A DNA stretch of 64,000 bases from Candidatus Omnitrophota bacterium (GTDB taxonomy: Bacteria > Omnitrophota > Gorgyraeia > JABMRN01 > RBG-13-46-9). Each line of letters starts with the position of its first letter. Position 1 is the first letter of the stretch. Both the position numbers and the translations under genes were made by a program. Positions 29,258 through 41,100 of this stretch are shown piece after piece. The notes under the pieces are model-generated. The model did no database searches and was not told where the DNA came from. It saw only the letters and a list, made by a program, of their open reading frames with translations. The stretch spans positions 1 through 64,000 of the forward strand of contig JABMQJ010000001.1 in NCBI GenBank assembly GCA_013203315.1. The letters run 5' to 3'.

Positions 29258-29671
29258 TTATTTCAAAAAATCCATGTAAATCGCCAGCAGCAACGCTGCT
29301 GCGGATAAAACAAATATAAAAAAGTAATTTATTCTTTCTTTCCTGGACCCCACGCCGCAAAGAATAGCGCCTATTGTCTCGTAGTCTTTCTTTTCGAGAT
29401 TTTTTTGATTGTTAATTTTGCTGATAAGGCCCTGCTTTGCTATTAGCCTTGCCCTGTTTTGATTTATTCTGTATTTATAAATAAAAAATGCCAGGAATCC
29501 GCCTATTCCTACATACCATGCTATCTTAGCATAAAGCGGGTTTAGGTGCATTAAAACAGTTACAAGCCTGACAGCTACTGTTGCTATAAGCCCTATTACA
29601 ACGAAACCCCACGAAGCCAGGGAATCTTTACAATTTTTGTATTCACTGCACTTTATACATGTTTTTTTCAT
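29258..29671 (-). CDS. Hypothetical membrane protein with N-terminal CxxC..C
   Basis: 3 TM helices, operon-coupled. Confidence 0.7.
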   Translation of the reverse strand: MKKTCIKCSEYKNCKDSLASWGFVVIGLIATVAVRLVTVLMHLNPLYAKIAWYVGIGGFLAFFIYKYRINQNRARLIAKQGLISKINNQKNLEKKDYETIGAILCGVGSRKERINYFFIFVLSAAALLLAIYMDFLK

Positions 29672-30381
29672 TAGTATCCCGCGAAATTCTCAATCCTGAT
29701 TTTATCGTTCCCAAGTGCAAGCTTATCTTTAAGGACACTCACCATGGCCCCTACCATGTTTGGAGGGCCGCATATATAAAATATTCTTTCTTTGTAATCC
29801 GGAATTTCCTCTTTTATCATGGCATCGGTTATATAACCGGTTCTGCCCTTCCATATTTTTTTATCTATGTCAGGCGAGGTGAGCGTGTGCACAACACGCA
29901 AGTTGCCGCGCCCGGCCATGTCTTCGAAATCTTTCTCGAATATAATATTATCTTCCGTGCGGTTACTGTATAGTAATACTATATCCGTTTTTAGCTTTTT
30001 GTCTATGACAAATTTACACATGCTCCTTATCGGAGTAATCCCTATGCCGCCTGAAAGAAACGCTATTTTTTCACATTCCCCTTCAAATGTGAATTTGCCG
30101 AGGGGCATCTTTATTTTTGCGATGTCGCCGGTTTTTAGCTTGTCCAGGGCCTTTGAAAATTCGCTTTCTGTTATTCTTTTTGTAAATTCGATGTAACCTG
30201 TTTCCGTAGGTGAGTTCGAAAACGAAAAATGCTTTGCCTTATCCTCGTTACCTACCTTGATCGTAAGCGTAAAAAACTGGCCCGGCTTGAAGCCTTCCCC
30301 CGGTTTTTCTCCGAACCTGAAGCTTTTCACGGTATTTGTCCGCTCTATTACATCTATAACGCGCGTTTCGAATTCAACCAT
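29671..30381 (-). CDS. FNR-family FAD/NAD(P)H oxidoreductase
   Basis: FKPGQF, FSFSNSP, GGIGITP, YICGPPNM, ENF. Confidence 0.9.
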   Translation of the reverse strand: MVEFETRVIDVIERTNTVKSFRFGEKPGEGFKPGQFFTLTIKVGNEDKAKHFSFSNSPTETGYIEFTKRITESEFSKALDKLKTGDIAKIKMPLGKFTFEGECEKIAFLSGGIGITPIRSMCKFVIDKKLKTDIVLLYSNRTEDNIIFEKDFEDMAGRGNLRVVHTLTSPDIDKKIWKGRTGYITDAMIKEEIPDYKERIFYICGPPNMVGAMVSVLKDKLALGNDKIRIENFAGY

Positions 30382-30382
30382 T

Positions 30383-30790
30383 CTATTTACCTTTTTTAAT
30401 CAAGGATCCTATGCTAATTGATTTTAAATCGGATACTATGTGTTTCTGTATCATGTCCAATTTTCCTTTTAAGGCGCAGGTCCTGATGTGAGGGCACAGG
30501 CTTTTTTTGAAAATATGTTCGTTGCATTTTAAAGGCCCCTGGAATATTTTCATTACATCGGCAACGAATATCGCGCCGGCGGCGCGTGATAATTCAAAAC
30601 CCCCGCCTTTTCCTTTATAGGATTTCAGGAGCCCCGACTTATTCATGCGCTGTAATATCTTCCGCAGGAAGGGGCGCGGAATTTTCAAATCGCGCACCAG
30701 TTTCTTTACCGAAACTATGCTCTTTTTGCGCTTTGCGATATAGCAAAGCGCCCTTATCGCGTAATCAGTGTCTCGTGTAACTAATTTCAT
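30383..30790 (-). CDS. Rrf2 family transcriptional regulator
   Basis: DYAIRAL, FLRKILQ, SYKGKGGGF, Cys/His-rich C-terminal segment. Confidence 0.93.
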   Translation of the reverse strand: MKLVTRDTDYAIRALCYIAKRKKSIVSVKKLVRDLKIPRPFLRKILQRMNKSGLLKSYKGKGGGFELSRAAGAIFVADVMKIFQGPLKCNEHIFKKSLCPHIRTCALKGKLDMIQKHIVSDLKSISIGSLIKKGK

Positions 30791-31341
30791 ATGCTATGCG
30801 CCACCACTTCCGATAAAACAACAATATCTTCGGTTCCAAAAATATCCGTAATGCTTTTGTCAAAAAGAAGATTGGCTTCCGGCCCAAATTCTTCATCCCC
30901 GCGCCAGAGCGTTATAAGGAAAGGCGTGCTCTCCTCGATTGTATCCAAGACTACGCTTACGTCCGCAAGCTCGGCTTTTTTAGCTCTGAAGCGCTCAACT
31001 AGCGTTAAAAGGGCTTCGGGATTTTTACCGTACTTTCGCGTAATCGTATTAATTACACGCTTCTTAAAATTTGGATAATACCCTTCGCCGCCTACTAATT
31101 CCTTAAAAGAGATCCACTCGCCCTTTATTGAAGGCAGTCCTTTGATTTTGCGTATCAGGTAATGCAAAATCAAAATGGACGTATAAACTTTTGCTGGAAC
31201 GTTGCATGAAACGGAAAAAACGGTTTTCTTGTCTACGTTAACCTCGTAATCATCGCCCAAAAACCGCAAAGAATGAGTCCTCTCCTCCATAACTTGCGCA
31301 AGACGCTCCCACGCATTGTTTAAAGCGACTTCGTATTCCAT
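30787..31341 (-). CDS. DUF3786 family protein
   Basis: ILILHYL, WISFKEL.GG..Y, WRGDEEFGPEANLLFD; start at 31341 coupled (TAATG) to the rubredoxin stop. Confidence 0.85.
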   Translation of the reverse strand: MEYEVALNNAWERLAQVMEERTHSLRFLGDDYEVNVDKKTVFSVSCNVPAKVYTSILILHYLIRKIKGLPSIKGEWISFKELVGGEGYYPNFKKRVINTITRKYGKNPEALLTLVERFRAKKAELADVSVVLDTIEESTPFLITLWRGDEEFGPEANLLFDKSITDIFGTEDIVVLSEVVAHSI

Positions 31342-31499
31342 TAAACCGGCTCGAACTTGTCTTTCCCAACCCCGCATTCCGGGCAAACCCAGTTCTCCGG
31401 TAAGCTTTCAAAAGATGTTCCGGGCTTTGCGCCGCTTTCCGGGTCGCCTTTTTCAGGATCATACACATACTGGCATATGGTGCATACGTATTGTTGCAT
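31341..31499 (-). CDS. Rubredoxin (52 aa, not in ORF track)
   Basis: [52 protein letters not shown]; AGGAAGG RBS. Confidence 0.95.
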
Positions 31500-31509
31500 G
31501 CCTTCCTCC

Positions 31510-31731
31510 TTATACTGATATAACTTCTTTTACTTCAGGCACTTCTTGTTTTACAATTCTTTCAACGCCGGCTTTTAAGGTCATCTGGCTCATTGGGCAA
31601 CATCCGCATGCGCCGGTGAGTTTCACCTTGACGACGCCATCAGGTGTAACGTCTACAAGCACAACGTCTCCGCCGTCAGCCTGAAGTGATGGTCTTATTT
31701 TGTTTAGTGCAGCTTCTACTCTTTCTTTCAT
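31510..31731 (-). CDS. Stand-alone Nfu (NifU C-terminal) domain protein
   Basis: [29 protein letters not shown]. Confidence 0.93.
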
Positions 31732-31751
31732 TTTGACCTCCGATTTTTTTA

Positions 31752-32240
31752 CTATTTTCTTTTTACAAGCTCTCCGTCTACCTCAGAAATACCTTTTTCG
31801 TCTTTTCCTGCTTTACTGATTTTCTCGAGAATCCCGGCCGGTGTGGCCTCTTCCTCTTTCTGCTCTTTCACGTACCACTGCAAAAAGTCCTCTGTGGTTT
31901 TATCGTTTTCCTCCTGGGCCAGTTTAACGAGGTTATTGATTAACCCCGTAACTTTCTTTTCGTGCGCGAGGGTCTTTTCGAAAAGGTCCGGGCCTGAAGT
32001 GAAATCCTGCGGCGGATTATCAATAGCCTTTAGCGTGACCCTTTGGCCCTCTGCGTGCACGTAATCAAACATCTTTTTCGCGTGAAAAATCTCTTCGTTC
32101 CACTGCTTATAAAACCAGTTGGCAAAACCGGCTAGCCCTTTTGACGCCGCATATGCGGACATCCCGAGATAAAAGTAAGCAGAGTATATTTCCTTATTAA
32201 TCTGCTCATCTAAAGCGTCTGTCATCTTTTTACTTAACAT
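31752..32240 (-). CDS. ftnA: Non-heme ferritin
   Basis: QINKEIYSAYFY, EE..HA, HEKKVT, FLQWYVKEQKEEE. Confidence 0.93.
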   Translation of the reverse strand: MLSKKMTDALDEQINKEIYSAYFYLGMSAYAASKGLAGFANWFYKQWNEEIFHAKKMFDYVHAEGQRVTLKAIDNPPQDFTSGPDLFEKTLAHEKKVTGLINNLVKLAQEENDKTTEDFLQWYVKEQKEEEATPAGILEKISKAGKDEKGISEVDGELVKRK

Positions 32241-32493
32241 TTTTCCCTCCCTCTTTCGTTTTCTTATTGTTTAGATATTTCTTATAAAGTTTTTCTCCTA
32301 CGCACTCTTTGCCATATTTACACCAATCAAGGCATGTTGCGCCCCCGTTTCGTAATACGGTTTTTTTGCACTTCGGGCACCTCGCCTTCACCTCATCTGT
32401 CCATATCTCCATCTCTTCGCTGCAAAAAGGGCATTTTATACTCTCTGGATGCGGCTGACTAAAACTTTGTGACCCCGGACACTTAAAATTCAT
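32230..32493 (-). CDS. Small Cys-rich (zinc-ribbon/Fe-S) protein
   Basis: CPG, CPFC..E.EIWTDE...CPKC, CLDWC.Y..EC. Confidence 0.8.
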   Translation of the reverse strand: MNFKCPGSQSFSQPHPESIKCPFCSEEMEIWTDEVKARCPKCKKTVLRNGGATCLDWCKYGKECVGEKLYKKYLNNKKTKEGGKNVK

Positions 32494-33323
32494 TTCCTAT
32501 CCCCTTTAATGCCGATATTAACGTCAGTAAACGGTATATTTTTACCTGAGGCCGCAAGCGCTTCCTGAACAATATTCAAAAGCCCGAAACAGCAAGGGAC
32601 CTCCATATGCGCGCAGGTTACTGACTTTATGTTATTGGTTTTAAAGATTTCGGTGAACTTGTTCTTGTAGTATTCCGCGTCGTCTAACTTGGGACAGCCT
32701 ACCAGCAGGATCTTCCCCTTCAATAAATCATCCTGGAAGCCTGCGTATGCGAATGAAGTGCAATCCGCCGCTATGAGTAAATCCGAGTTGTCAAGATACG
32801 GAGCAAATGCCGGGACAAGCTTGATCTGGACCGGCCAGTTCTCGAGTTGCGACACGCCGCTTGGAGTGACTCCGCCCTTTTTGGTTTCTTTTCCGCGTAA
32901 ATCCACTATTTTCGTTCCGGGACATCCAGAAGGTCCGCCGGCGTGCTTGTGCGCGTACGCTTTTTCAGTTAACGGGTTTTTTATGCCCTTTTCCTTCAGG
33001 ACCTCTAATGCCTGATTTAGAAATTTTGTCTCTCCGTGTTCTTTCAGGTGTTCAAGGTGCGCTATTATTACGTTCTTCCCCTGTTTTACAATATTTTGCA
33101 TTACTTTCTTTTCATCGTACTTTTCGGCTTCTCTTTCCTCTATATTTATCGCCCCTTCCGGACAATGCCCTATGCAGGCGCCCAGGCCGTCACAGAATAG
33201 ATCACTTATAAGACGCGCCTTTCCGTCTATAATTTGAAGCGCCCCTTCCGGACAGTTTGGAATACACAGACTGCAACCGTTGCATTTCTTCTCATCGATT
33301 TTTATTATTTTTCTCTTTGCCAT
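32490..33323 (-). CDS. [4Fe-4S] ferredoxin-domain oxidoreductase
   Basis: Two CxxCxxCxxxCP-type motifs; WPVQIKLV, IAADC, GCPKLD, MEVPCC; start at 33323 after GGAGG. Confidence 0.85.
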   Translation of the reverse strand: MAKRKIIKIDEKKCNGCSLCIPNCPEGALQIIDGKARLISDLFCDGLGACIGHCPEGAINIEEREAEKYDEKKVMQNIVKQGKNVIIAHLEHLKEHGETKFLNQALEVLKEKGIKNPLTEKAYAHKHAGGPSGCPGTKIVDLRGKETKKGGVTPSGVSQLENWPVQIKLVPAFAPYLDNSDLLIAADCTSFAYAGFQDDLLKGKILLVGCPKLDDAEYYKNKFTEIFKTNNIKSVTCAHMEVPCCFGLLNIVQEALAASGKNIPFTDVNIGIKGDRK

Positions 33324-33348: not shown

Positions 33349-33378
33349 AATGATACCACTTTAGTATCATTATGTCAA
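33349..33378 (-). promoter_or_regulatory. Sigma70 promoter with palindromic operator AATGATAC-N7-GTATCATT
   Basis: TTGACA-N17-TATCAT on minus; palindrome at 33349-33371. Confidence 0.85.
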
Positions 33379-33387
33379 GGGATTTAT

Positions 33388-34353
33388 TTACTTTTTTAAA
33401 GCCCCTTCGCAGCTTGAGCCCGCGCCTGCCGTACAGCAGTAACAGTGATTTTCGAAAATTATTTCCCTCTCCTGCAATTCATCAGGGCTTATGTCACTTA
33501 CCTTTATCGTTTTATCACTCTTATCCTTAAGGGACAAGTTGAGCGCCTGGTTAAAGTCGCAATCGTACAAAGTACCGTCCCAACCGACGCTTAACAGTTT
33601 GCGGCACATTATATTACCGGCTACGTTCTCATTAAAATTATCCATTAAGAGTTTCATGTACTTGTCAAAATTGCCGTTTGCCTTAAGATACTGTTCAAAT
33701 CTTTTTATCGGGGCATTCGTGATCGTCAAAAGATAGCTGAATGTCACCTGATACTTTTCTTTTAGAACTTTTTTGTAGTCTCTTTCGAGTCCGGACTGTT
33801 CTCCCGGTAAAACAGCGCCTCCCGGGTTATAGACAAGGTCAAGCACGAGATTTTCTTCTTTCCCGTATCCTAATTCATTGAGAATCCTGAGCGCTTTAAT
33901 GCTCTTGTCAAAAACACCTTCGCCTCTTTGCTTGTCCACGTTCTCCCGGGTATAACAGGGCATCGAGCAAACAAGGTGGACACCTTGATCCTTGTAAAAT
34001 TGCGCCATGCCCTCCATGCCCGGCTCAAGTAATACTGTAAGGTTACTTCTTACCTTTATTTCTTTTGCGTGTGGTTTGGCTTTTTCTATAAAATACTTAA
34101 AGTTAGGGTTAAGTTCGGGACACCCGCCTGTTACATCCAGGATAAGGTCCTTCTTTTTGGATAAAAATATTACGATATCGCCCATCACTTCTTTGGACAT
34201 TATTTTAGCGCCACTCGGGCTTGCGTCAACATGGCAGTGCGCGCACTGCTGGTTACATCTATTGCCTAGATTCACTTGTAGCGTCTCCGGGTTAACGCGC
34301 CTTGAATAGGTTCTATCAATTGTGTAGACCTTTTCCTTAAAATCGCTTTTCAT
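33388..34353 (-). CDS. arsS: Radical SAM protein, ArsS/TIGR04167 family
   Basis: TLQVNLG..CNQQCAHCHV, MCR..LSVGWDG.LYDCDFNQ, HCYCCTAGAGSSC. Confidence 0.88.
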   Translation of the reverse strand: MKSDFKEKVYTIDRTYSRRVNPETLQVNLGNRCNQQCAHCHVDASPSGAKIMSKEVMGDIVIFLSKKKDLILDVTGGCPELNPNFKYFIEKAKPHAKEIKVRSNLTVLLEPGMEGMAQFYKDQGVHLVCSMPCYTRENVDKQRGEGVFDKSIKALRILNELGYGKEENLVLDLVYNPGGAVLPGEQSGLERDYKKVLKEKYQVTFSYLLTITNAPIKRFEQYLKANGNFDKYMKLLMDNFNENVAGNIMCRKLLSVGWDGTLYDCDFNQALNLSLKDKSDKTIKVSDISPDELQEREIIFENHCYCCTAGAGSSCEGALKK

Positions 34354-34355
34354 TT

Positions 34356-35786
34356 TTACCTTAATATTTTGATGAAGAATTTCATCATGGCTTTAAACCA
34401 ACCCGAAGACATGACCGACATATAACGCTGGTCAGCGGAACTTTTAACAACTTGAGACAATGTCGGATATATGTGTATAGATGAGCTTAATTTATCAATG
34501 CTTAGCTTTGCCGACTTGGCAAGCACATATTCATGTATGAGCTCTCCTGCATTTGCCCCTACTATGTGCGCGCCAAGGATCTTGCCTTTCTTATCGCAAA
34601 TAACCTTAGCCATCCCCTCCTTTTGGAGATCCGTAACAGCCCTATCGTTTGCGCTATATTGGGATCTGTATACATTTACATTCTTATATTGCGAGCGCGC
34701 CTCAACTTCGGTAAGCCCGAGGTGCGCAAGTTCGGGTTCTGTAAATGTGCACCAGGGCACAGCGCCATAGTCGACCGCTCGCTTGAAAGGAAGAAGCGCG
34801 TTACCCAGGGCAATAATTGCCTGGTATTCTGCGATGTGGCTAAATTGATACGGCCCTACAATATCTCCGGCTGCGTATATATTTGGAGCGTCTGTTTTTA
34901 ACGTCTTATCTGCCTCTATACCTTTATTACTATACTTAACTCCGGCTTTTTCCAAGTCAAGGCCCCGAACGTTAGCAGATCTGCCAACCGCGACAAGAAC
35001 CCTTTCAGAGGTAACCGTGGAAAGTTTTTTATCTTTGTCTTCGATGGTTACGGTAACGCTTTGTCTGTTTTTACTGAACTTAACCGCTTTTTTACCTGCA
35101 TAAATTTTCACGCCGTCTTTTACGAGGTTTTCGCGTAGTACCCGGGCAAGTTCCTCGTCTTCCCTGAAAAGTATCCTGTCAAACATCTCTACGATCGAAA
35201 CCTTAACGCCGAGCCTCGCAAGCGCCTGGGATAGCTCTATGCCGATGGGGCCTCCGCCAAGAACCGTTATCGATTCCGGGAGCGCTTCCAGATCGAAGAT
35301 GTTTTCATTGGTAAGATAGTCGATGTCTTTGAGGCCCTCTATGGGTGGGACCATTGGATGCGAACCCGTGCATATGATAAATCTCTTTGCGGACATGCGC
35401 TTACCGTCTAATAATATGGTTTTATTATCAACGAATTTGGGAGCCCCGAAAAGTACCTTTATGCCTTTTTTTTCAAAAACACCGGCGGGATGGTGAGAGC
35501 TTATTTCCTTTATAATACTTCTTACGTGCGGCATTACGTTGTCGGTGTCAAATTTTGCGCCTTGTGCGGAGGATATTCCGTATTTGTCCGAGTGCTTAAG
35601 CAGCGAAAAAACCTGAGATGACTTTAAGAGCGCTTTAGAGGGAATACATCCGTACCACGTACAGTCGCCACCCAGTTTATTCTTCTCAATAAGGGCCGTC
35701 TTAGCACCCATCATGGCTCCACCCGTAGCTGCCACTAGGCCCGCCGCTCCGCCGCCTATAACGATTAGATCGTAATCAGGTTTCAT
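34356..35786 (-). CDS. Class-I pyridine nucleotide-disulfide oxidoreductase (LpdA/MerA-like)
   Basis: GGGAAG, GGDCTWYGCIPSK, GGGPIG.E, HIYPT; no MerA C-terminal Cys pair. Confidence 0.88.
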   Translation of the reverse strand: MKPDYDLIVIGGGAAGLVAATGGAMMGAKTALIEKNKLGGDCTWYGCIPSKALLKSSQVFSLLKHSDKYGISSAQGAKFDTDNVMPHVRSIIKEISSHHPAGVFEKKGIKVLFGAPKFVDNKTILLDGKRMSAKRFIICTGSHPMVPPIEGLKDIDYLTNENIFDLEALPESITVLGGGPIGIELSQALARLGVKVSIVEMFDRILFREDEELARVLRENLVKDGVKIYAGKKAVKFSKNRQSVTVTIEDKDKKLSTVTSERVLVAVGRSANVRGLDLEKAGVKYSNKGIEADKTLKTDAPNIYAAGDIVGPYQFSHIAEYQAIIALGNALLPFKRAVDYGAVPWCTFTEPELAHLGLTEVEARSQYKNVNVYRSQYSANDRAVTDLQKEGMAKVICDKKGKILGAHIVGANAGELIHEYVLAKSAKLSIDKLSSSIHIYPTLSQVVKSSADQRYMSVMSSGWFKAMMKFFIKILR

Positions 35787-35800
35787 CTATTTTTCTTTCC

Positions 35801-35980
35801 TCATTGCGGCTTCATCTGAGTTTTTAAATAATTATAGCACTTTTTGCATATTCCATCTTCCTCTTTCCAATCAGGGTGTTTCTTTTTTATTTCGTTAATG
35901 ATGTGCTCTTCGGTGTGCGGTATAATAACGAGTAATTCTCTGGGAAGTGATTTCCCGCATGTAGGGCAAGTAAATTCCAT
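35801..35980 (-). CDS. 59-aa CxxC/HxxxH/CxxC metal-binding protein (not in ORF track)
   Basis: MEFTCPTCGKSLPRELLVIIPHTEEHIINEIKKKHPDWKEEDGICKKCYNYLKTQMKPQ; GGAGGA RBS; fills the operon gap. Confidence 0.85.
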   Translation of the reverse strand: MEFTCPTCGKSLPRELLVIIPHTEEHIINEIKKKHPDWKEEDGICKKCYNYLKTQMKPQ

Positions 35981-35992
35981 AATGTCCTCCTC

Positions 35993-36676
35993 TTATTTTT
36001 TGTTTCGTTTTTTAACACGCGTGTAAATTAAAGGTATTGCTATAATAAGAATAAGTAAACCAAGCGCAACCAAAAACTCCGTAGAAAGTAAATCTTTAAG
36101 GTTTTTTACTTCGCCGAGCGTTCCCCCGAAAAACGCGGATATTACAACCCCCGGGATAATGCCTAAAAACGTCGCCAAAAAATAATCTTTTAATTTTATC
36201 TTTGAAAGCCCACAGGCGTAGTTTAATACTTCGTAGGGCACTATCGGGATAAGTCTGAAGAGAAGAACTGTTACGAACCCCTTTCTTTCCAGGAGCTCGT
36301 TCAGTTTTTTACCCTTGCCCTTAAGTATCCTGTCAACCAGGCTCCTTCCGAAGAATCGCGATATGAAAAAGGTGGAAGTTGTTCCGAGCATAGCACCTGT
36401 CATTAAATACACGGCACCCCAGACTTTACCGAAGGCAAGGCCTGCCGTAAGTGAAAGTAGGGCTATCGGCGGGATGATCGAAATCGTATTCAAGGCATAT
36501 GCTATTATGTATATGACAGCGGCAAGGGTTCCGAAACCCTGTATGTAATCCCTTATGCTTGAGGGCGTGAGAGACTCCAGGTTGAGGCACTGGCATTTTA
36601 CTATCCACCAGATACCTGCTACAAGTAAAACCCCTATGAGTACTTTAACTAAATTTTTAAGAATCTTCGTGTCCAT
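35993..36676 (-). CDS. TVP38/TMEM64 (DedA/VTT) family membrane protein
   Basis: AGLAFG, FFISRFFGR, RLIPIVPY..LNY..GLS. Confidence 0.92.
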   Translation of the reverse strand: MDTKILKNLVKVLIGVLLVAGIWWIVKCQCLNLESLTPSSIRDYIQGFGTLAAVIYIIAYALNTISIIPPIALLSLTAGLAFGKVWGAVYLMTGAMLGTTSTFFISRFFGRSLVDRILKGKGKKLNELLERKGFVTVLLFRLIPIVPYEVLNYACGLSKIKLKDYFLATFLGIIPGVVISAFFGGTLGEVKNLKDLLSTEFLVALGLLILIIAIPLIYTRVKKRNKK

Positions 36677-37296
36677 TTCGCCGATTTTTTATTTTTCTTT
36701 AGATCCCTAACAAGACGAAACAATTCAAGCGGTGTGTCAACATCATACCACTTATCCAAAAGAGCTACTTTTTTCTTAAGGCGCTTTGCCTTTTTAAGAG
36801 TGTCGCCCAACACCTCTTGAGAGCTCCATTTTATATTACTAAAGAGGGCACCACAAGGCTTTTTAAGTCCTATCAGGTAATACCCACCGTCACGGCTCGG
36901 CCCCAATACGAGGTCGTTTTTCTCGAGCTTGCGGAATGCTTTTTTAACGAGATCGGAAGGCAGGTTAGGGGCATCCGAACCGATAATAAGCGTTTTCGAA
37001 TCCTCGTCTTTCGAGGCGTTCCTGAAAGCATTGTGCATTCTCCGGCCGAGATCTTTCCCCTTTTGCCTGTAGAATTTAAAGCGCGGCGCTATTTTTTTAA
37101 GGCTTCCGGGATTTTTTGATCTTGAATCATAAGCCATTATCCTCCGGTCGCATTTCACGCTTTTTGCAAGGTTCACGGTGTCTTTTAAAAAAGCCTTATA
37201 TAAATCCACGCGATCCGTATCAGAGAGAAAGCTCGATAGTCTTGTTTTTATATCGTGTTTTTTCGGTTCTTTCGCGAAAATGACTAAATTCTTCAT
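36649..37296 (-). CDS. DUF2064/TIGR04282 family transferase
   Basis: IFAKEP...KTRL, QKG.DLG.RM, IIGSDAP, LGPSRDGGYYLIG, WS, DVDT. Confidence 0.9.
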   Translation of the reverse strand: MKNLVIFAKEPKKHDIKTRLSSFLSDTDRVDLYKAFLKDTVNLAKSVKCDRRIMAYDSRSKNPGSLKKIAPRFKFYRQKGKDLGRRMHNAFRNASKDEDSKTLIIGSDAPNLPSDLVKKAFRKLEKNDLVLGPSRDGGYYLIGLKKPCGALFSNIKWSSQEVLGDTLKKAKRLKKKVALLDKWYDVDTPLELFRLVRDLKKNKKSAKWTRRFLKI

Positions 37297-37967
37297 CTCA
37301 AATCTTCATACAGATCTTTTATTTTATCAAGCGGGAATTTCAGGCAGTGTAATAACGTTACGTAATTATGTAGTAATATGGTGCTAAGCACTCCCTTTTT
37401 CTCCCATCTTCTCGGAGAAACGCTAACCTTGTTGCATAACACAACGGTTCTGCCTGACCTTCGCAACTTTCTAGTGAAAAGCACGTCCTCCATGATCGGG
37501 ACTTCGGGGAAACCTTTAAGTTTTAAGAATTTATCTTTTTTTGTAAATATTGCCTGATCACCGTAAAAGACTTTAGTAGCCCTGGCTCTTAAGTTACCCT
37601 GCATTTCAAGTATCCTATATATCAGTCCTTTTCTATCTATCCTTTGCGTAAGGCAACCGCCTACACAACTGCTATTTTTTAATCGTTTTTCAACGGCCGC
37701 GACTGTTCTGGGAGAAATTACATTATCGGCGTGTAAGAATAGGAGGATATTGCTTTCGGCGTGCCCTGCCCCACAATTCATCTGGAGGGCACGGCCCTTG
37801 CCGGTGCGCACTACTTTGCCATAAACCTTAGCGACTTCTACACTTCTGTCAGAGCTACCGCCGTCTACAAAGATGAGCTCCGCTTTTTCGGCAAGCCTGC
37901 GAAACCCGGGCAGGTTCTTTGACAGGATCTTTTCTTCGTTATATATGGGAATAATTATGCTAACCAT
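37293..37967 (-). CDS. GT2 glycosyltransferase, TIGR04283 family
   Basis: SIIIPIYNE, VDGGSSD, GRALQMN, FLHAD, YGDQ, PIMEDV, SPRRW; likely start ATG 37967. Confidence 0.9.
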   Translation of the reverse strand: MVSIIIPIYNEEKILSKNLPGFRRLAEKAELIFVDGGSSDRSVEVAKVYGKVVRTGKGRALQMNCGAGHAESNILLFLHADNVISPRTVAAVEKRLKNSSCVGGCLTQRIDRKGLIYRILEMQGNLRARATKVFYGDQAIFTKKDKFLKLKGFPEVPIMEDVLFTRKLRRSGRTVVLCNKVSVSPRRWEKKGVLSTILLHNYVTLLHCLKFPLDKIKDLYEDLR

Positions 37968-37983
37968 GTCCCCTAACACTTCG

Positions 37984-38037
37984 TGGGGACAGATCTCTCA
38001 TCAAGCATGCTTAACAAGATGAGGAGATCCGTCCCCA
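37984..38037. repeat. GGGACAG-type REP-like hairpin
   Basis: TGGGGACAGATCTC...GAGATCCGTCCCCA; similar GGGACAG/CTGTCCC pairs at 2119-2178 and 58378-58401. Confidence 0.7.
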
Positions 38038-38053
38038 TATTTTTTCGGGCAGT

Positions 38054-38137
38054 TTAGAGTCTTACCCGGGACGATCTACTGCAGCCTTCGTCACAATGTG
38101 CTACAGGGCGTAACATGTACCTAATTGTAATTTGCAT
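38054..38137 (-). CDS. 27-aa Cys-containing peptide heading the arsS cluster (not in ORF track)
   Basis: AAGGAGG 7 nt before ATG; MQITIRYMLRPVAHCDEGCSRSSRVRL; directly downstream of a consensus-like promoter. Confidence 0.7.
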   Translation of the reverse strand: MQITIRYMLRPVAHCDEGCSRSSRVRL

Positions 38138-38165
38138 CTTAATCCCTCCTTTTTAGTTCTGTATT

Positions 38166-38195
38166 AATGATACCTAATAGGTATCATTCTGTCAA
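38166..38195 (-). promoter_or_regulatory. Sigma70 promoter with palindromic operator AATGATAC-N7-GTATCATT
   Basis: TTGACA-N17-TATCAT on minus; palindrome at 38166-38188; same architecture as 33349-33378. Confidence 0.85.
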
Positions 38196-41100
38196 GAGCT
38201 TTTTTTAAGCTCTTTCTCTTTCAGCCAGGCGTATAAGACCGGGACCAGTATTAGGTTGGCTAGGGTTGCGGTGACGAGTCCTCCTACAAGGGGCGATGCC
38301 ATCGGCTTCATGACCTCAGAACCTGTCCCCGTCGATAGCATTACAGGCATTAGCGCTATGACTGTAGTCGTCGCGGTCATCATTGCCGGTCTTAAACGTA
38401 ATAGACAACCTTCGATTACTGTCTTACGTATGTCTTCTACTGTTTTCGGTAGTTTTTTCTTAAAGAGATTATCCAGTGTTGAAAGCAGTACGACCGCGTT
38501 GTCCGTGGCAACACCAAACAGGGCTATGAACCCTACCCATACGACAGTGGAAAATTTGAATCCCAGTAAGAATAAAAGTATTACCCCTCCCGTAAGCGCT
38601 ACGGGAATTCCCGTAGAGAGAATAAGAAGCGACTTAACGTTCCTAAACGCTATGTAGAGCAGGATCATGATTACGCCCAGGCATATTAAAAGTGACGGGA
38701 TAAGCCTTTTTCTTGATTCCATCTCTGACTCAAACTGGCCTGACCAGGAAACATAATATCCCGACGGAAGCTTTATTTCTCCTTTTTTAATCTTTTCATC
38801 CACGGCCCTTTGCGCATTTTTTACGAAGTCTATAAGACCTACCTTGTCCTGATCAACGTTCACAAAAATTCTCGCGTATGAAAGCGTATTTTCCGAGTTG
38901 ATAACGGCGGGGCCGGGAACGCGTTTCAGTTCGGCTATCTGCGCCAGCGGAATATGCTCCCCGCCGGATGTAGGAATAAAAATTCTCTTAAGCGCTTCCG
39001 GATTGTCGCGTAACTCACGCATGTATCTTACGCGAACCGGATAACGCTCTCTTCCTTCAACGGTTGTAGTAATATTCATGCCGCCTATCGCGGTCATGAT
39101 GACATGTTGAATGTCCCGGACGTTTATGCCGTATCTTGCAGCGGCCTCTCTATCTATTTCAATTTCGAAATAGGGCCTGTTCGATATGCGTTCGGCATAG
39201 GGGCTCACCGCGCCTTTTACCTTGGATACGACAGCCTCTATCTCGGTTGCGATCTCGACTATTTTATTAAGGTCCGGCCCGAAAACCTTGATACCTACGG
39301 GTGTTTGTATACCCGTAGCTAACATGTCTATCCTATTCCTTATGGGCTGAGTCATTATCGGGCTTACACCGGGCATACGCGTTTTTTCCTGTATTTCCAG
39401 TATGAGTTTCTCGCGCGTCATGCCCCTTCGCCAGAATTTTTTGTCTTTAAGATTAATAATTGTCTCTATCATTGCTACAGGCGCCGGGTCTGTCGCGGTT
39501 TCCGCGCGGCCAAGCTTACCCACGACCTGCTTTACCTCATTTGGGAATTCCTTTTTAATGATGATATCCTGCGTTCTCATTACATCCATTACCTGCGTGA
39601 GAGACGCCCCCGGCAGAAGAACGGGCATGAAAAGAAGGTCCCCTTCATTTAAAGGCGGCATGAATTCCTGTTTTATCATGGAAGCGAATATTCCGCCCAA
39701 TAGCAAAAGCGCGACTGTTATTATTATAATTTTTTGCTTATTTTTTAACGCCCAGCTGATCGTGGGTAAATAGTGCTTACGAAGATTACGCGAAGTAGCA
39801 TTTTTATCAGGGTCCTGCAATTTTCCCCTTAAAAAATAATAACAAAGCGTCGGAAGAAGCGTAAGCGCGATTACCGCGGCGCCCACCATGACAAATGTCT
39901 TCGTAAAGGCAAGCGGCCTGAAAAGCTTGCCTGCCTGTCCTGTCAGAACAAAAACCGGCAGAAACCCTACAATAGTCGTAAGAAGAGCGAAAAGAACGGG
40001 CTTCCCTACTTCCTTGGCGCCGTCTATGCAGACGTCGAGTCTTTCTTCGGGCGCGAGACTATTTGCGCCCTTTTCTTTTCTTCTATCTACAATTCTTCTA
40101 TAAATGTTTTCAACCAGCACACAACCCGAATCAACCATTATGCCTATGGCGATGGCGATACCGCCAAGCGACATTATGTTGGCATCCACGCCAAAGAGGC
40201 GCATGAGAATAAATGCGATCAATATGCCTACGGGCAGGACGATCGCTATGGCAGCGCTTGCCAGGAAGTGCGCGAGAAATACCAGGATAACAAATACTGT
40301 TATTATAATTTCCTGTATAAGAGCGGTCTTAAGCGTATCAATAGAGCGCATGATAAGCCCTGTTCTGTCATAAAACGGTACTATTTTAACACCGGGAGGC
40401 AGGCCCACGGATAGCTCTTCGATTTTTTCCTTTATGTCCTTTATTACTTTAAGCGGATTCTCACCGTAACGCATGAGAATCACACCGCCTGTTACCTCTT
40501 TTCCTTCCTTGTCAAGGGCGCCCCTCCTGAATTCAGGGCCGATTGTCACCGTGGCTATGTTTTTTACATAAATAGGGGTGCCATTTTTCTCATCAATTAC
40601 TATGTTTTCTATGTCGTCTGTGTTTTTTATGAAACCGAGGCCCCTTACTACAAATTCGGTCCCGCCTTCTTCAAAGACCTTGGCCCCTACGTCAATATTG
40701 GAGGCTTCTACCGCTTTTATTACCTCGTGAATCCTGACGTCATGCGCGAGCAGCTTATTTGGGTCTACGTCTATTTGATATTGCTTTACATGACCGCCTA
40801 CTGAAGCGACTTCTGATACGCCCTTTACGGCATTAAGCTGATACCTTATATACCAGTCCTGGATCGAACGCAACTCATCCAGGCTGTGACCCTCGCCTTC
40901 AACCGTATACCAGAAAATCTGGCCGAGCGCCGTTGCGTCAGGCCCTAAAGTGACAGAGACATCACTCGGGATACCCCTTTTCGCAAAATCAAGCCTTTCT
41001 AAAACGCGTGTCCTGGCCCAGTAAAAATCTGTTCCGTCCTCAAAGATCATGTTTACCAGGCCAAAGCCAAAAGCTGACGTGGAACGTACAACTTTTATAT

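Follow-up and report, generated by a model that had tools for sequence, protein, structure and literature searches.

Several kinds of bacterial leader tie the expression of the genes behind them to translation or to RNA structure. Arrest peptides such as TnaC (of the tna operon), SecM, SpeFL and ErmCL are encoded by short translated leaders in which amino acids and not codons are conserved, as a block of ~10-17 residues that ends at the stall site, and the downstream genes depend on what a ribosome does at that place. In pyrBI-type and amino-acid attenuators, the 3' end of the leader ORF and its stop codon lie inside an RNA structure that an arriving ribosome prevents from folding. The mgtA leader combines a translated micro-ORF (mgtL) with a Mg2+-sensing structured RNA, and the mgtL peptide acts via its proline codons. 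The preQ1-I and SAM-II riboswitches and the frameshift pseudoknots are small, compact knots, in which invariant unpaired bases are typical of the riboswitches. RiPP precursors beside radical SAM maturases are arranged as a short first ORF with cysteines, a hairpin and then the enzymes.

The module described here was found in a window of 64,000 nucleotides (the whole stretch of Candidatus Omnitrophota DNA that was analysed) and consists of a small ORF (sORF) whose 3' end lies within a predicted H-type pseudoknot. Like the arrest leaders it is a short leader with every sign of being translated, in which amino acids and not codons are conserved, and its conserved block would span the exit tunnel near the end of the ORF, where downstream genes would depend on the ribosome; unlike them, it has a covarying knot that contains the stop codon, precedes redox-stress cargo and shows no sequence similarity to any of them. 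It resembles the attenuators in that the end of the ORF and the stop codon are part of an RNA structure, with a U-run behind it in 29 of 94 loci, and differs in having no run of regulatory codons, in forming a pseudoknot with conserved loops, in the absence of a U-run from 55 of the 94 loci and in its invariant peptide. As in mgtA, a micro-ORF and a structured RNA share one leader, whereas in mgtA no fixed register joins the two and mgtL does not act through a conserved 13-residue block. The knot itself matches those of preQ1-I, SAM-II and frameshift elements in its size (~29 nt), its 1-nt loop 1, its A-rich loop 3 across stem 1 and its conserved loop bases, yet it has no match in Rfam, its stem 2 holds no Shine-Dalgarno sequence and no slippery heptamer lies upstream. 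The RiPP-like order of short cysteine ORF, hairpin and enzymes is also seen in the window, but the module does not co-occur with such enzymes elsewhere (0/93 loci) and the enzyme concerned is an ArsS equivalog. What sets the module apart from arrest leaders, attenuators and uORF-riboswitch leaders is an invariant peptide fused to a pseudoknot in fixed register.

The sequence-only reading of the window had proposed a near-consensus promoter and a strong ribosome-binding site ahead of a 27-aa ORF, a small hairpin at the 3' end of this ORF, a long hairpin behind it, and a run of genes from a TIGR04283 glycosyltransferase through TIGR04282, DedA, a 59-aa protein and a flavin disulfide reductase to ArsS. 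All of these elements are present and the gene list is right (Table 1); the small hairpin (CGGGTA/TGCCCG) carries compensatory changes and turned out to be stem 2 of the pseudoknot. That reading had also proposed looking for codon-level conservation and RNA covariation, both of which were found, and for an sORF conserved in frame upstream of related clusters; the sORF is indeed conserved with its frame respected, in other surroundings.

Table 1. Features of the leader, the operon behind it and the neighbouring operon with the same operator (positions in the window).
Feature	Position	Strand	Details
Promoter P1	38167..38195	-	TTGACA (38190-38195), 17-nt spacer, TATCAT (38167-38172); 11/12 positions match
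Operator palindrome AATGATACC-N5-GGTATCATT	38166..38188	.	Perfect palindrome; covers P1 spacer and -10 box
Shine-Dalgarno AAGGAGG	38145..38151	-	7 nt upstream of ATG
sORF, 27 codons + TAA: MQITIRYMLRPVAHCDEGCSRSSRVRL	38054..38137	-	ATG 38137, TAA 38054; translation and homologues
Protein-conserved core, codons 7-19 (YMLRPVAHCDEGC)	38081..38119	-	Codon-position entropy; most relatives have K in place of D
Possible alternative outer helix P0	38049..38082	-	38078-38082 with 38049-38053; excludes stem 2; 90% of cells paired
H-type pseudoknot, 29 nt	38046..38074	-	Stem 1: 38070-38074 with 38057-38061; stem 2: 38063-38068 with 38046-38051; stop codon UAA (38054-38056) in loop 3
Long hairpin between pseudoknot and transferase gene	37985..38036	-	52 nt, -32.5 kcal/mol; no U tail
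Cargo: TIGR04283 GT2, TIGR04282/DUF2064, DedA/VTT, 59-aa CxxC protein, FAD disulfide reductase, ArsS radical SAM	33388..37967	-	Profile matches
Second perfect operator, inside promoter P2 (TTGACA-17-TATCAT)	33349..33371	.	Precedes ferredoxin-domain gene (ATG 33323); no sORF
P2 operon: Fer4-domain, 87-aa CxxC, ferritin, NifU-like, DUF3786, Rrf2 (30383-30790), FNR-like reductase	29671..33323	-	

All data came from metagenome-assembled genomes. When 40 relatives were searched at the DNA level, six genomes proved to have the ORF itself conserved, and translation gives the same peptide in each. A profile built from seven peptides was then searched in six frames against 401 genomes of the same Omnitrophota class, and matched 176 of them at E<=0.01 (129 of the 270 high-quality genomes), with two copies in 10 genomes. 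In a sample of 151 genomes across the phylum, 35 matches fell in the same class, the source genome among them, and a single weak match (E=0.003) came from the ~80 genomes belonging to other families. A scan of species representatives returned 309 pattern matches, of which 282 were confirmed; the best 80 of these matches were labelled Omnitrophota/Omnitrophica (62), 'uncultured Planctomycet*' (17) or 'bacterium' (1). After duplicates were dropped, 94 loci formed the working set.

In these loci the sORF starts with ATG without exception (94/94), and 93 have a Shine-Dalgarno sequence (a 5-6-mer in 80, a 4-mer in 13, none in one). Codons 7-19, YMLRPVAHCKEGC in the family, follow the pattern [YW]-[ML]-[LI]-R-[PA]-V-A-[HR]-C-K-E-G-C with free wobble positions: entropy by codon position was 0.20/0.00/1.19 bits, with the second positions invariant and the third free to vary, and all six Leu, six Arg, four Pro, four Val and four Ala codons occur at invariant residues. 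Since variation is distributed in this way over the codon positions, codons 7-19 are, on comparative grounds, under selection as protein. The stop codon lies always within the knot or beyond, as TAG at codon 22 (five loci), TGA at codon 26 (21), TAA at codon 28 (62) or later (six), giving peptides of 21, 25, 27 or more residues; because its position varies from codon 22 onward, only the first ~20 residues matter as peptide. Subfamilies of the form MARN[YH]IRWLIRPVA[HR]CKEGC and M..P[RK]YFLRA[VI]AHCKEGC were also seen (loci L132, L133, L135, L137 and L144-L150; proteins P0006, P0016 and P0022), and His14 is replaced by Arg in several members, including some of these. The sequence-only reading had suggested allowing TGA at the cysteine positions. 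No TGA was found there, codons 15 and 19 being TGT or TGC in 94/94 loci, and a selenoprotein/SECIS reading was rejected on this count. AlphaFold2, run on a natural 33-aa member with 83 sequences, gave no confident fold (pLDDT 51, pTM 0.13), which is weak evidence at such a chain length.

From codon 20 onward the pattern of conservation changes. Codons 20-28 have no 3-base periodicity (entropy 0.79/0.71/0.44 bits by codon position from codon 20), the invariant bases are contiguous in runs that extend past the stop codon, and conservation acts on RNA and not on protein across the last codons, the stop and the 8 bases that follow it. These bases match an H-type pseudoknot in which stem 1 pairs alignment columns 64-68 with 77-81, stem 2 pairs 70-75 with 87-92, loop 1 is a single C, and the UAA stop codon sits in loop 3 (UAAAC). 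Over the 94 sequences 84.3% of cells were paired, compared to 30-47% when the partners were slid, and the covariation score was equalled in 0/500 shuffles. In stem 1, pair 66-79 is GC in 82 loci, CG in 11 and GU in one, with none unpaired, and pair 65-80 occurs as five pair types. The CG swaps at 66-79 within the 94 loci all come from one family; seven added loci from two other families have C66-G79 together with G65-C80 (stem 1 GCUC/GAGC, 7/7), and three of the seven have the full stem GGCUC/GAGCC. In stem 2, every cell is paired at 71-91 and 73-89, and UA/AU swaps at 71-91, 72-90 and 73-89 occur in one or two sequences each, with a double change at each, so that support here is thinner than for stem 1. 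The compensatory changes argue that the 3' end of the sORF forms an H-type pseudoknot, of which stem 2 rests on few events. The pseudoknot pattern was found in 121 of the 401 class genomes, at one or two per genome, against 0 for a reversed control pattern. It starts 6 nt past the Cys-19 codon; the alignment of the 94 rows from ATG to knot is gapless, and although the N-terminal length varies between subfamilies, the spacing from core to knot is constant in those read. Helix P0 is a possible alternative fold, with its pairing in 90% of cells accompanied by almost no covariation.

A U-run within 6 nt after the structure was found in 29/94 loci (compared to 9/94 in a control stretch), and a reading of the knot as a terminator was rejected, as a U-run follows it in only this part of the set. 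A -1 frameshift site was likewise rejected, since the consensus TGT AAA GAG GGC TGC AGT holds no in-frame slippery heptamer of the form X XXY YYZ. Behind the pseudoknot, 15/94 loci have a hairpin of -15 kcal/mol or stronger, and in 13 of these the next gene is not Rrf2. By eye, the GUCCCC that forms the 3' arm of the long hairpin is also complementary to the GGGGAC just 5' of the transferase ATG (37965-37990 in the window), and the hairpin, if opened, could mask the transferase start. Four loci (L029, L090, L093 and L108) carry a palindromic element of 60-70 nt inserted in loop 3 of the knot, with terminal inverted repeats (CCCCGTTACAAA.../...TTTGTAACGGGG) and a duplicated TAAAC on its flanks, behind which the UAAAC-UGCCC strand is restored; its sequence suggests a MITE with TAAAC as the duplicated target. 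Two pseudoknots were found without any sORF, in unrelated contexts: one between a 75-aa ORF and a pseudopilin gene (G399:C7:35022-35045; L130/L138), the other after spoVG and a small ORF, followed by a U-run and then a convergent gene (G127:C16:70773-70796; L131/L139).

Taken by itself, the match of P1 to a promoter is weak evidence, because two promoter-like sites were found in the 1.2-kb region where 1.7 are expected. Across the family, a P1-type promoter lies upstream of the sORF in 60/94 unique loci, and most sORF loci have a promoter with the operator AATGATAC-N7-GTATCATT, the palindrome promoter being at most 140 nt upstream in 60/94. The operator in P1 is kept in related loci, and the 1.5-Mb source genome contains exactly two perfect copies, at P1 and P2. 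We presume it to be the binding site of the Rrf2 regulator. In the window the genes of a CusB/CusA efflux pair precede the sORF, and the TGA stop codon of CusA falls inside the -35 hexamer of P1, so that this efflux operon abuts the leader promoter with zero spacer.

The genes behind the sORF point to a redox-stress regulon. In 63 of 92 loci an Rrf2 regulator follows as the first downstream ORF; elsewhere the first gene encodes GH5 (eight), a ferredoxin-domain protein (four), ferritin (three) and, among the singles, Hcp, flavodiiron protein, rubredoxin and an FNR-like reductase. A GT2 gene comes first only in the source window. As second gene, a ferredoxin-domain protein of ~275 aa occurs in 32/85 loci (by Pfam) and Hcp/prismane in 18/85, with desulfoferrodoxin (SOR), flavodiiron protein and ferritin also present. 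In ~7 of the 63 loci with Rrf2 next, the Rrf2 gene starts 7-14 nt past the knot without a Shine-Dalgarno sequence of its own, an arrangement that implies translational coupling; the next gene in most loci of the Rrf2 type is served by a Shine-Dalgarno sequence of its own, 20-60 nt after the knot, and the knot does not visibly sequester it. Four of the two-copy genomes carry their eight copies ahead of different next genes (Rrf2, FNR-like reductase, rubredoxin with flavodiiron protein, ribonucleotide reductase, two LTXXQ, cupredoxin and one unknown). The module is not always first in its operon: in one genome (G008) a NifU-like gene stands between operator and sORF, making the module internal, and in the GH5 group it follows an operon of FDP, rubrerythrin, FMN reductase, glutaredoxin and Ogg and precedes a U-run, a position that suits the last gene of an operon.

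In the source window, P2 lies directly before the ferredoxin-domain gene, and the operon behind it therefore has its own regulated promoter without an sORF. The same operator was found elsewhere in relatives at the promoters of SOR-like, NifU-like and Rrf2 genes. In the Rrf2 proteins two Cys are invariant, a third position is Cys or His, and Asp9 is kept, a ligand set that we take to be like that of the cluster-binding NsrR/IscR-type regulators. We infer that the module belongs to a predicted regulon governed, in one Omnitrophota class, by an NsrR/IscR-like Rrf2 repressor that binds a cluster. The idea of a 'split Rrf2', in which the peptide supplies missing cluster ligands, was rejected, as these proteins retain their own Cys/His ligands and Asp9. 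In one locus (L011; G016:C14) the operator/promoter almost abuts the Rrf2 start, leaving little or no mRNA leader and no sORF, which indicates that the regulon is present without the module in some genomes. Two small proteins of the window have no Pfam family above cut-off: the 59-aa CxxC protein (CPTC...CKKC, 35801-35980) and the 87-aa CxxC protein (CPFC...CPKC with further Cys, 32230-32493).

The sequence-only reading had tied the sORF to arsS/TIGR04283 clusters, a link that did not survive wider sampling. By tblastn of flanks of 1.5-3 kb, ArsS, the TIGR04283 and TIGR04282 transferases and the flavin reductase occurred in 0/93 other sORF loci, compared to 66/93 for Rrf2 and 35/93 for the 87-aa CxxC protein. 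As ArsS genes are absent from the other 93 loci and the operator and leader are common to redox-stress loci, gene neighbourhoods indicate that the module is not an ArsS accessory and that, in this genome, the arsenosugar-type ArsS cluster has been brought behind the promoter and leader of the regulon.

Neither the peptide nor the RNA matched a family in the libraries searched. The peptide matched 0 families in Pfam-A and NCBIfam at E<=10, a tRNA scan gave no match, and Rfam 15 returned nothing at gathering score in the window, with only four far-sub-threshold matches at E<=10 in positions 36000-40000. Among 1.84 billion proteins, a profile search matched 66 at E<=0.001, nearly all of 19-100 aa and often with miscalled N-terminal extensions; three longer matches were weak, multi-stretch and repeat-like, and no longer homologue or domain was found in this set. 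The VAHCKEGC motif did not occur in the literature searched, where the nearest systems to the module were those in abstracts on the TnaC and PepNL leader peptides (PMC8450073, PMC11890864), and where the one paper naming both Omnitrophota and Rrf2 concerns Magnetospirillum NsrR. The family is new to Pfam, NCBIfam, Rfam and the literature searched.

We favour, with slightly better than even confidence, a translated cis-regulatory leader of the Rrf2 redox-stress regulon, in which a micro-ORF and a pseudoknot are held in fixed register and which has been recruited here to the ArsS cluster. One part of this leader would be the micro-ORF, with codons 7-19 selected as amino acids, and the other the 29-nt knot holding its last codons and stop; the whole would usually lie directly behind an Rrf2-type operator/promoter and directly ahead of Rrf2 and redox-stress genes. 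Wherever the stop codon lies, any ribosome completing the ORF would have to melt the pseudoknot. The mRNA entry of the ribosome is ~12-13 nt past the first P-site base. With the invariant 13-residue block ending 6 nt before the knot, ribosome geometry would place any stall where the first pair of the knot meets the ribosome with Gly18 or Cys19 in the P site, and at that moment the invariant peptide would occupy the tunnel between the peptidyl-transferase centre and the constriction, as known arrest peptides do. By passing or pausing, the ribosome would then decide what becomes of the downstream mRNA: the next gene could be reached by reinitiation, the hairpin or U-run could be read through, or the stability of the mRNA could change. 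As to the signal, one would guess first at redox, NO or thiol status. Such a leader is consistent with the universal ATG, the Shine-Dalgarno sequence in 93/94 loci and the coding selection on codons 7-19, with a covarying knot in fixed register to the core, with an operator/promoter just upstream in 60/94 loci behind which the module usually comes first, and with the lack of any longer homologue of the peptide. The copies ahead of different operons in four two-copy genomes and the ~7 Rrf2 genes without their own Shine-Dalgarno sequence close behind the knot also favour it. The part of the earlier reading that proposed a sensing leader peptide was therefore sound in direction (Shine-Dalgarno sequence, regulated promoter, conserved RNA overlap), and its link to cysteine or metalloids lost the arsenic side to the Rrf2 redox-stress regulon. 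A more specific form, in which the two thiols or the shape of the peptide in the tunnel would report oxidant, NO or thiol status and, with the knot as a roadblock one ribosome-front length downstream, would gate the stress genes, we regard as rather unlikely; a redox-sensing arrest peptide joined to an mRNA pseudoknot has no described precedent in the literature searched.

Some observations sit less easily with a cis-acting leader. Unlike in the TnaC-type systems, pausing and an effect on downstream expression are predictions from sequence here; most downstream genes have their own Shine-Dalgarno sequence, which the knot does not visibly sequester; in G008 and the GH5 group other genes of the operon come before the module; and two knots have no sORF. 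Near-total amino-acid conservation would be expected equally of a small protein with a conserved partner, and it is possible, if on balance doubtful, that the product of the sORF is a Cys micropeptide acting in trans within the oxidative/nitrosative stress regulon, and that the pseudoknot is a separate 3' element, there for stabilisation, for pausing or as part of a terminator, whose overlap with a dispensable tail is fortuitous. Two chains could, for example, share a metal or Fe-S centre via Cys15 and Cys19, or the peptide could be a partner of Rrf2. The sORF is always found among redox-stress genes, whatever its operon position, the tail past residue 21 is dispensable (5/94 loci stop at codon 22), stand-alone knots exist, and a strong hairpin (15/94) or a U-run often follows, as behind a highly expressed first gene. 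A micropeptide, however, leaves the strict register of core and knot without explanation, as it does the two copies before different operons in one genome, and it has neither a longer relative nor a domain. The exchange of His14 for Arg weakens a fixed His/Cys metal site, HCxxxC being no constant ligand set, and the AlphaFold2 scores lean the same way, weakly for so short a chain.

The stand-alone knots would also suit an aptamer that binds a ligand or protein in riboswitch style, with the sORF as its expression platform and the bound knot blocking or slowing the ribosome. Its compact H-type fold, in which the C of loop 1 and the UAAAC of loop 3 are unpaired and invariant, and its occurrence once or twice per genome, against none for the reversed control, would fit; we consider this unlikely, as it does not account for the invariance of 13 peptide residues, the cargo is too varied for a ligand to be inferred, and no Rfam family matches even at E<=10. 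The same invariance bears on a classical codon-based attenuator sensing charged tRNA-Cys through its two Cys codons, as the other eleven core residues are equally conserved and codon sensing needs none of this. The two Cys codons never vary and are found 7-21 nt ahead of structured RNA, 29/94 loci have the U-run, and some of the cargo uses cysteine (cysteine desulfurase, NifU-like proteins); but there are just two such codons, which are not adjacent, the cargo includes no cysteine-biosynthesis genes, and the alternative helix P0 shows no covariation, all of which makes an attenuator very improbable. The earlier proposal of RiPP architecture, with the peptide serving ArsS and the two transferases as precursor, substrate or carrier, drew on the position of the sORF in the source genome as first cistron before the cluster with a strong hairpin behind it. 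We now find it close to untenable: none of the 93 other loci has ArsS, either transferase or the flavin reductase, 63/92 loci run straight on to Rrf2, and residues past position 19 are shaped by RNA and not by protein. The radical SAM enzyme, moreover, scores as a TIGR04167 ArsS equivalog (420 bits, cut-off 300) and lies far below all peptide-maturase cut-offs (20-35 bits compared to 300-850).

The Omnitrophota are uncultured, and what is known of their regulation comes from genomes. The module is among the most conserved short elements of this group, and it marks a whole redox-stress regulon that includes Rrf2, Hcp, flavodiiron protein, SOR, ferritin and ribonucleotide reductase, into which the ArsS cluster of the source genome is wired. 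A micro-ORF and a pseudoknot in fixed register constitute a compact form of dual coding that standard gene and RNA finders overlook. If peptide and knot act jointly on the ribosome, the module would represent a new class of translational sensor.
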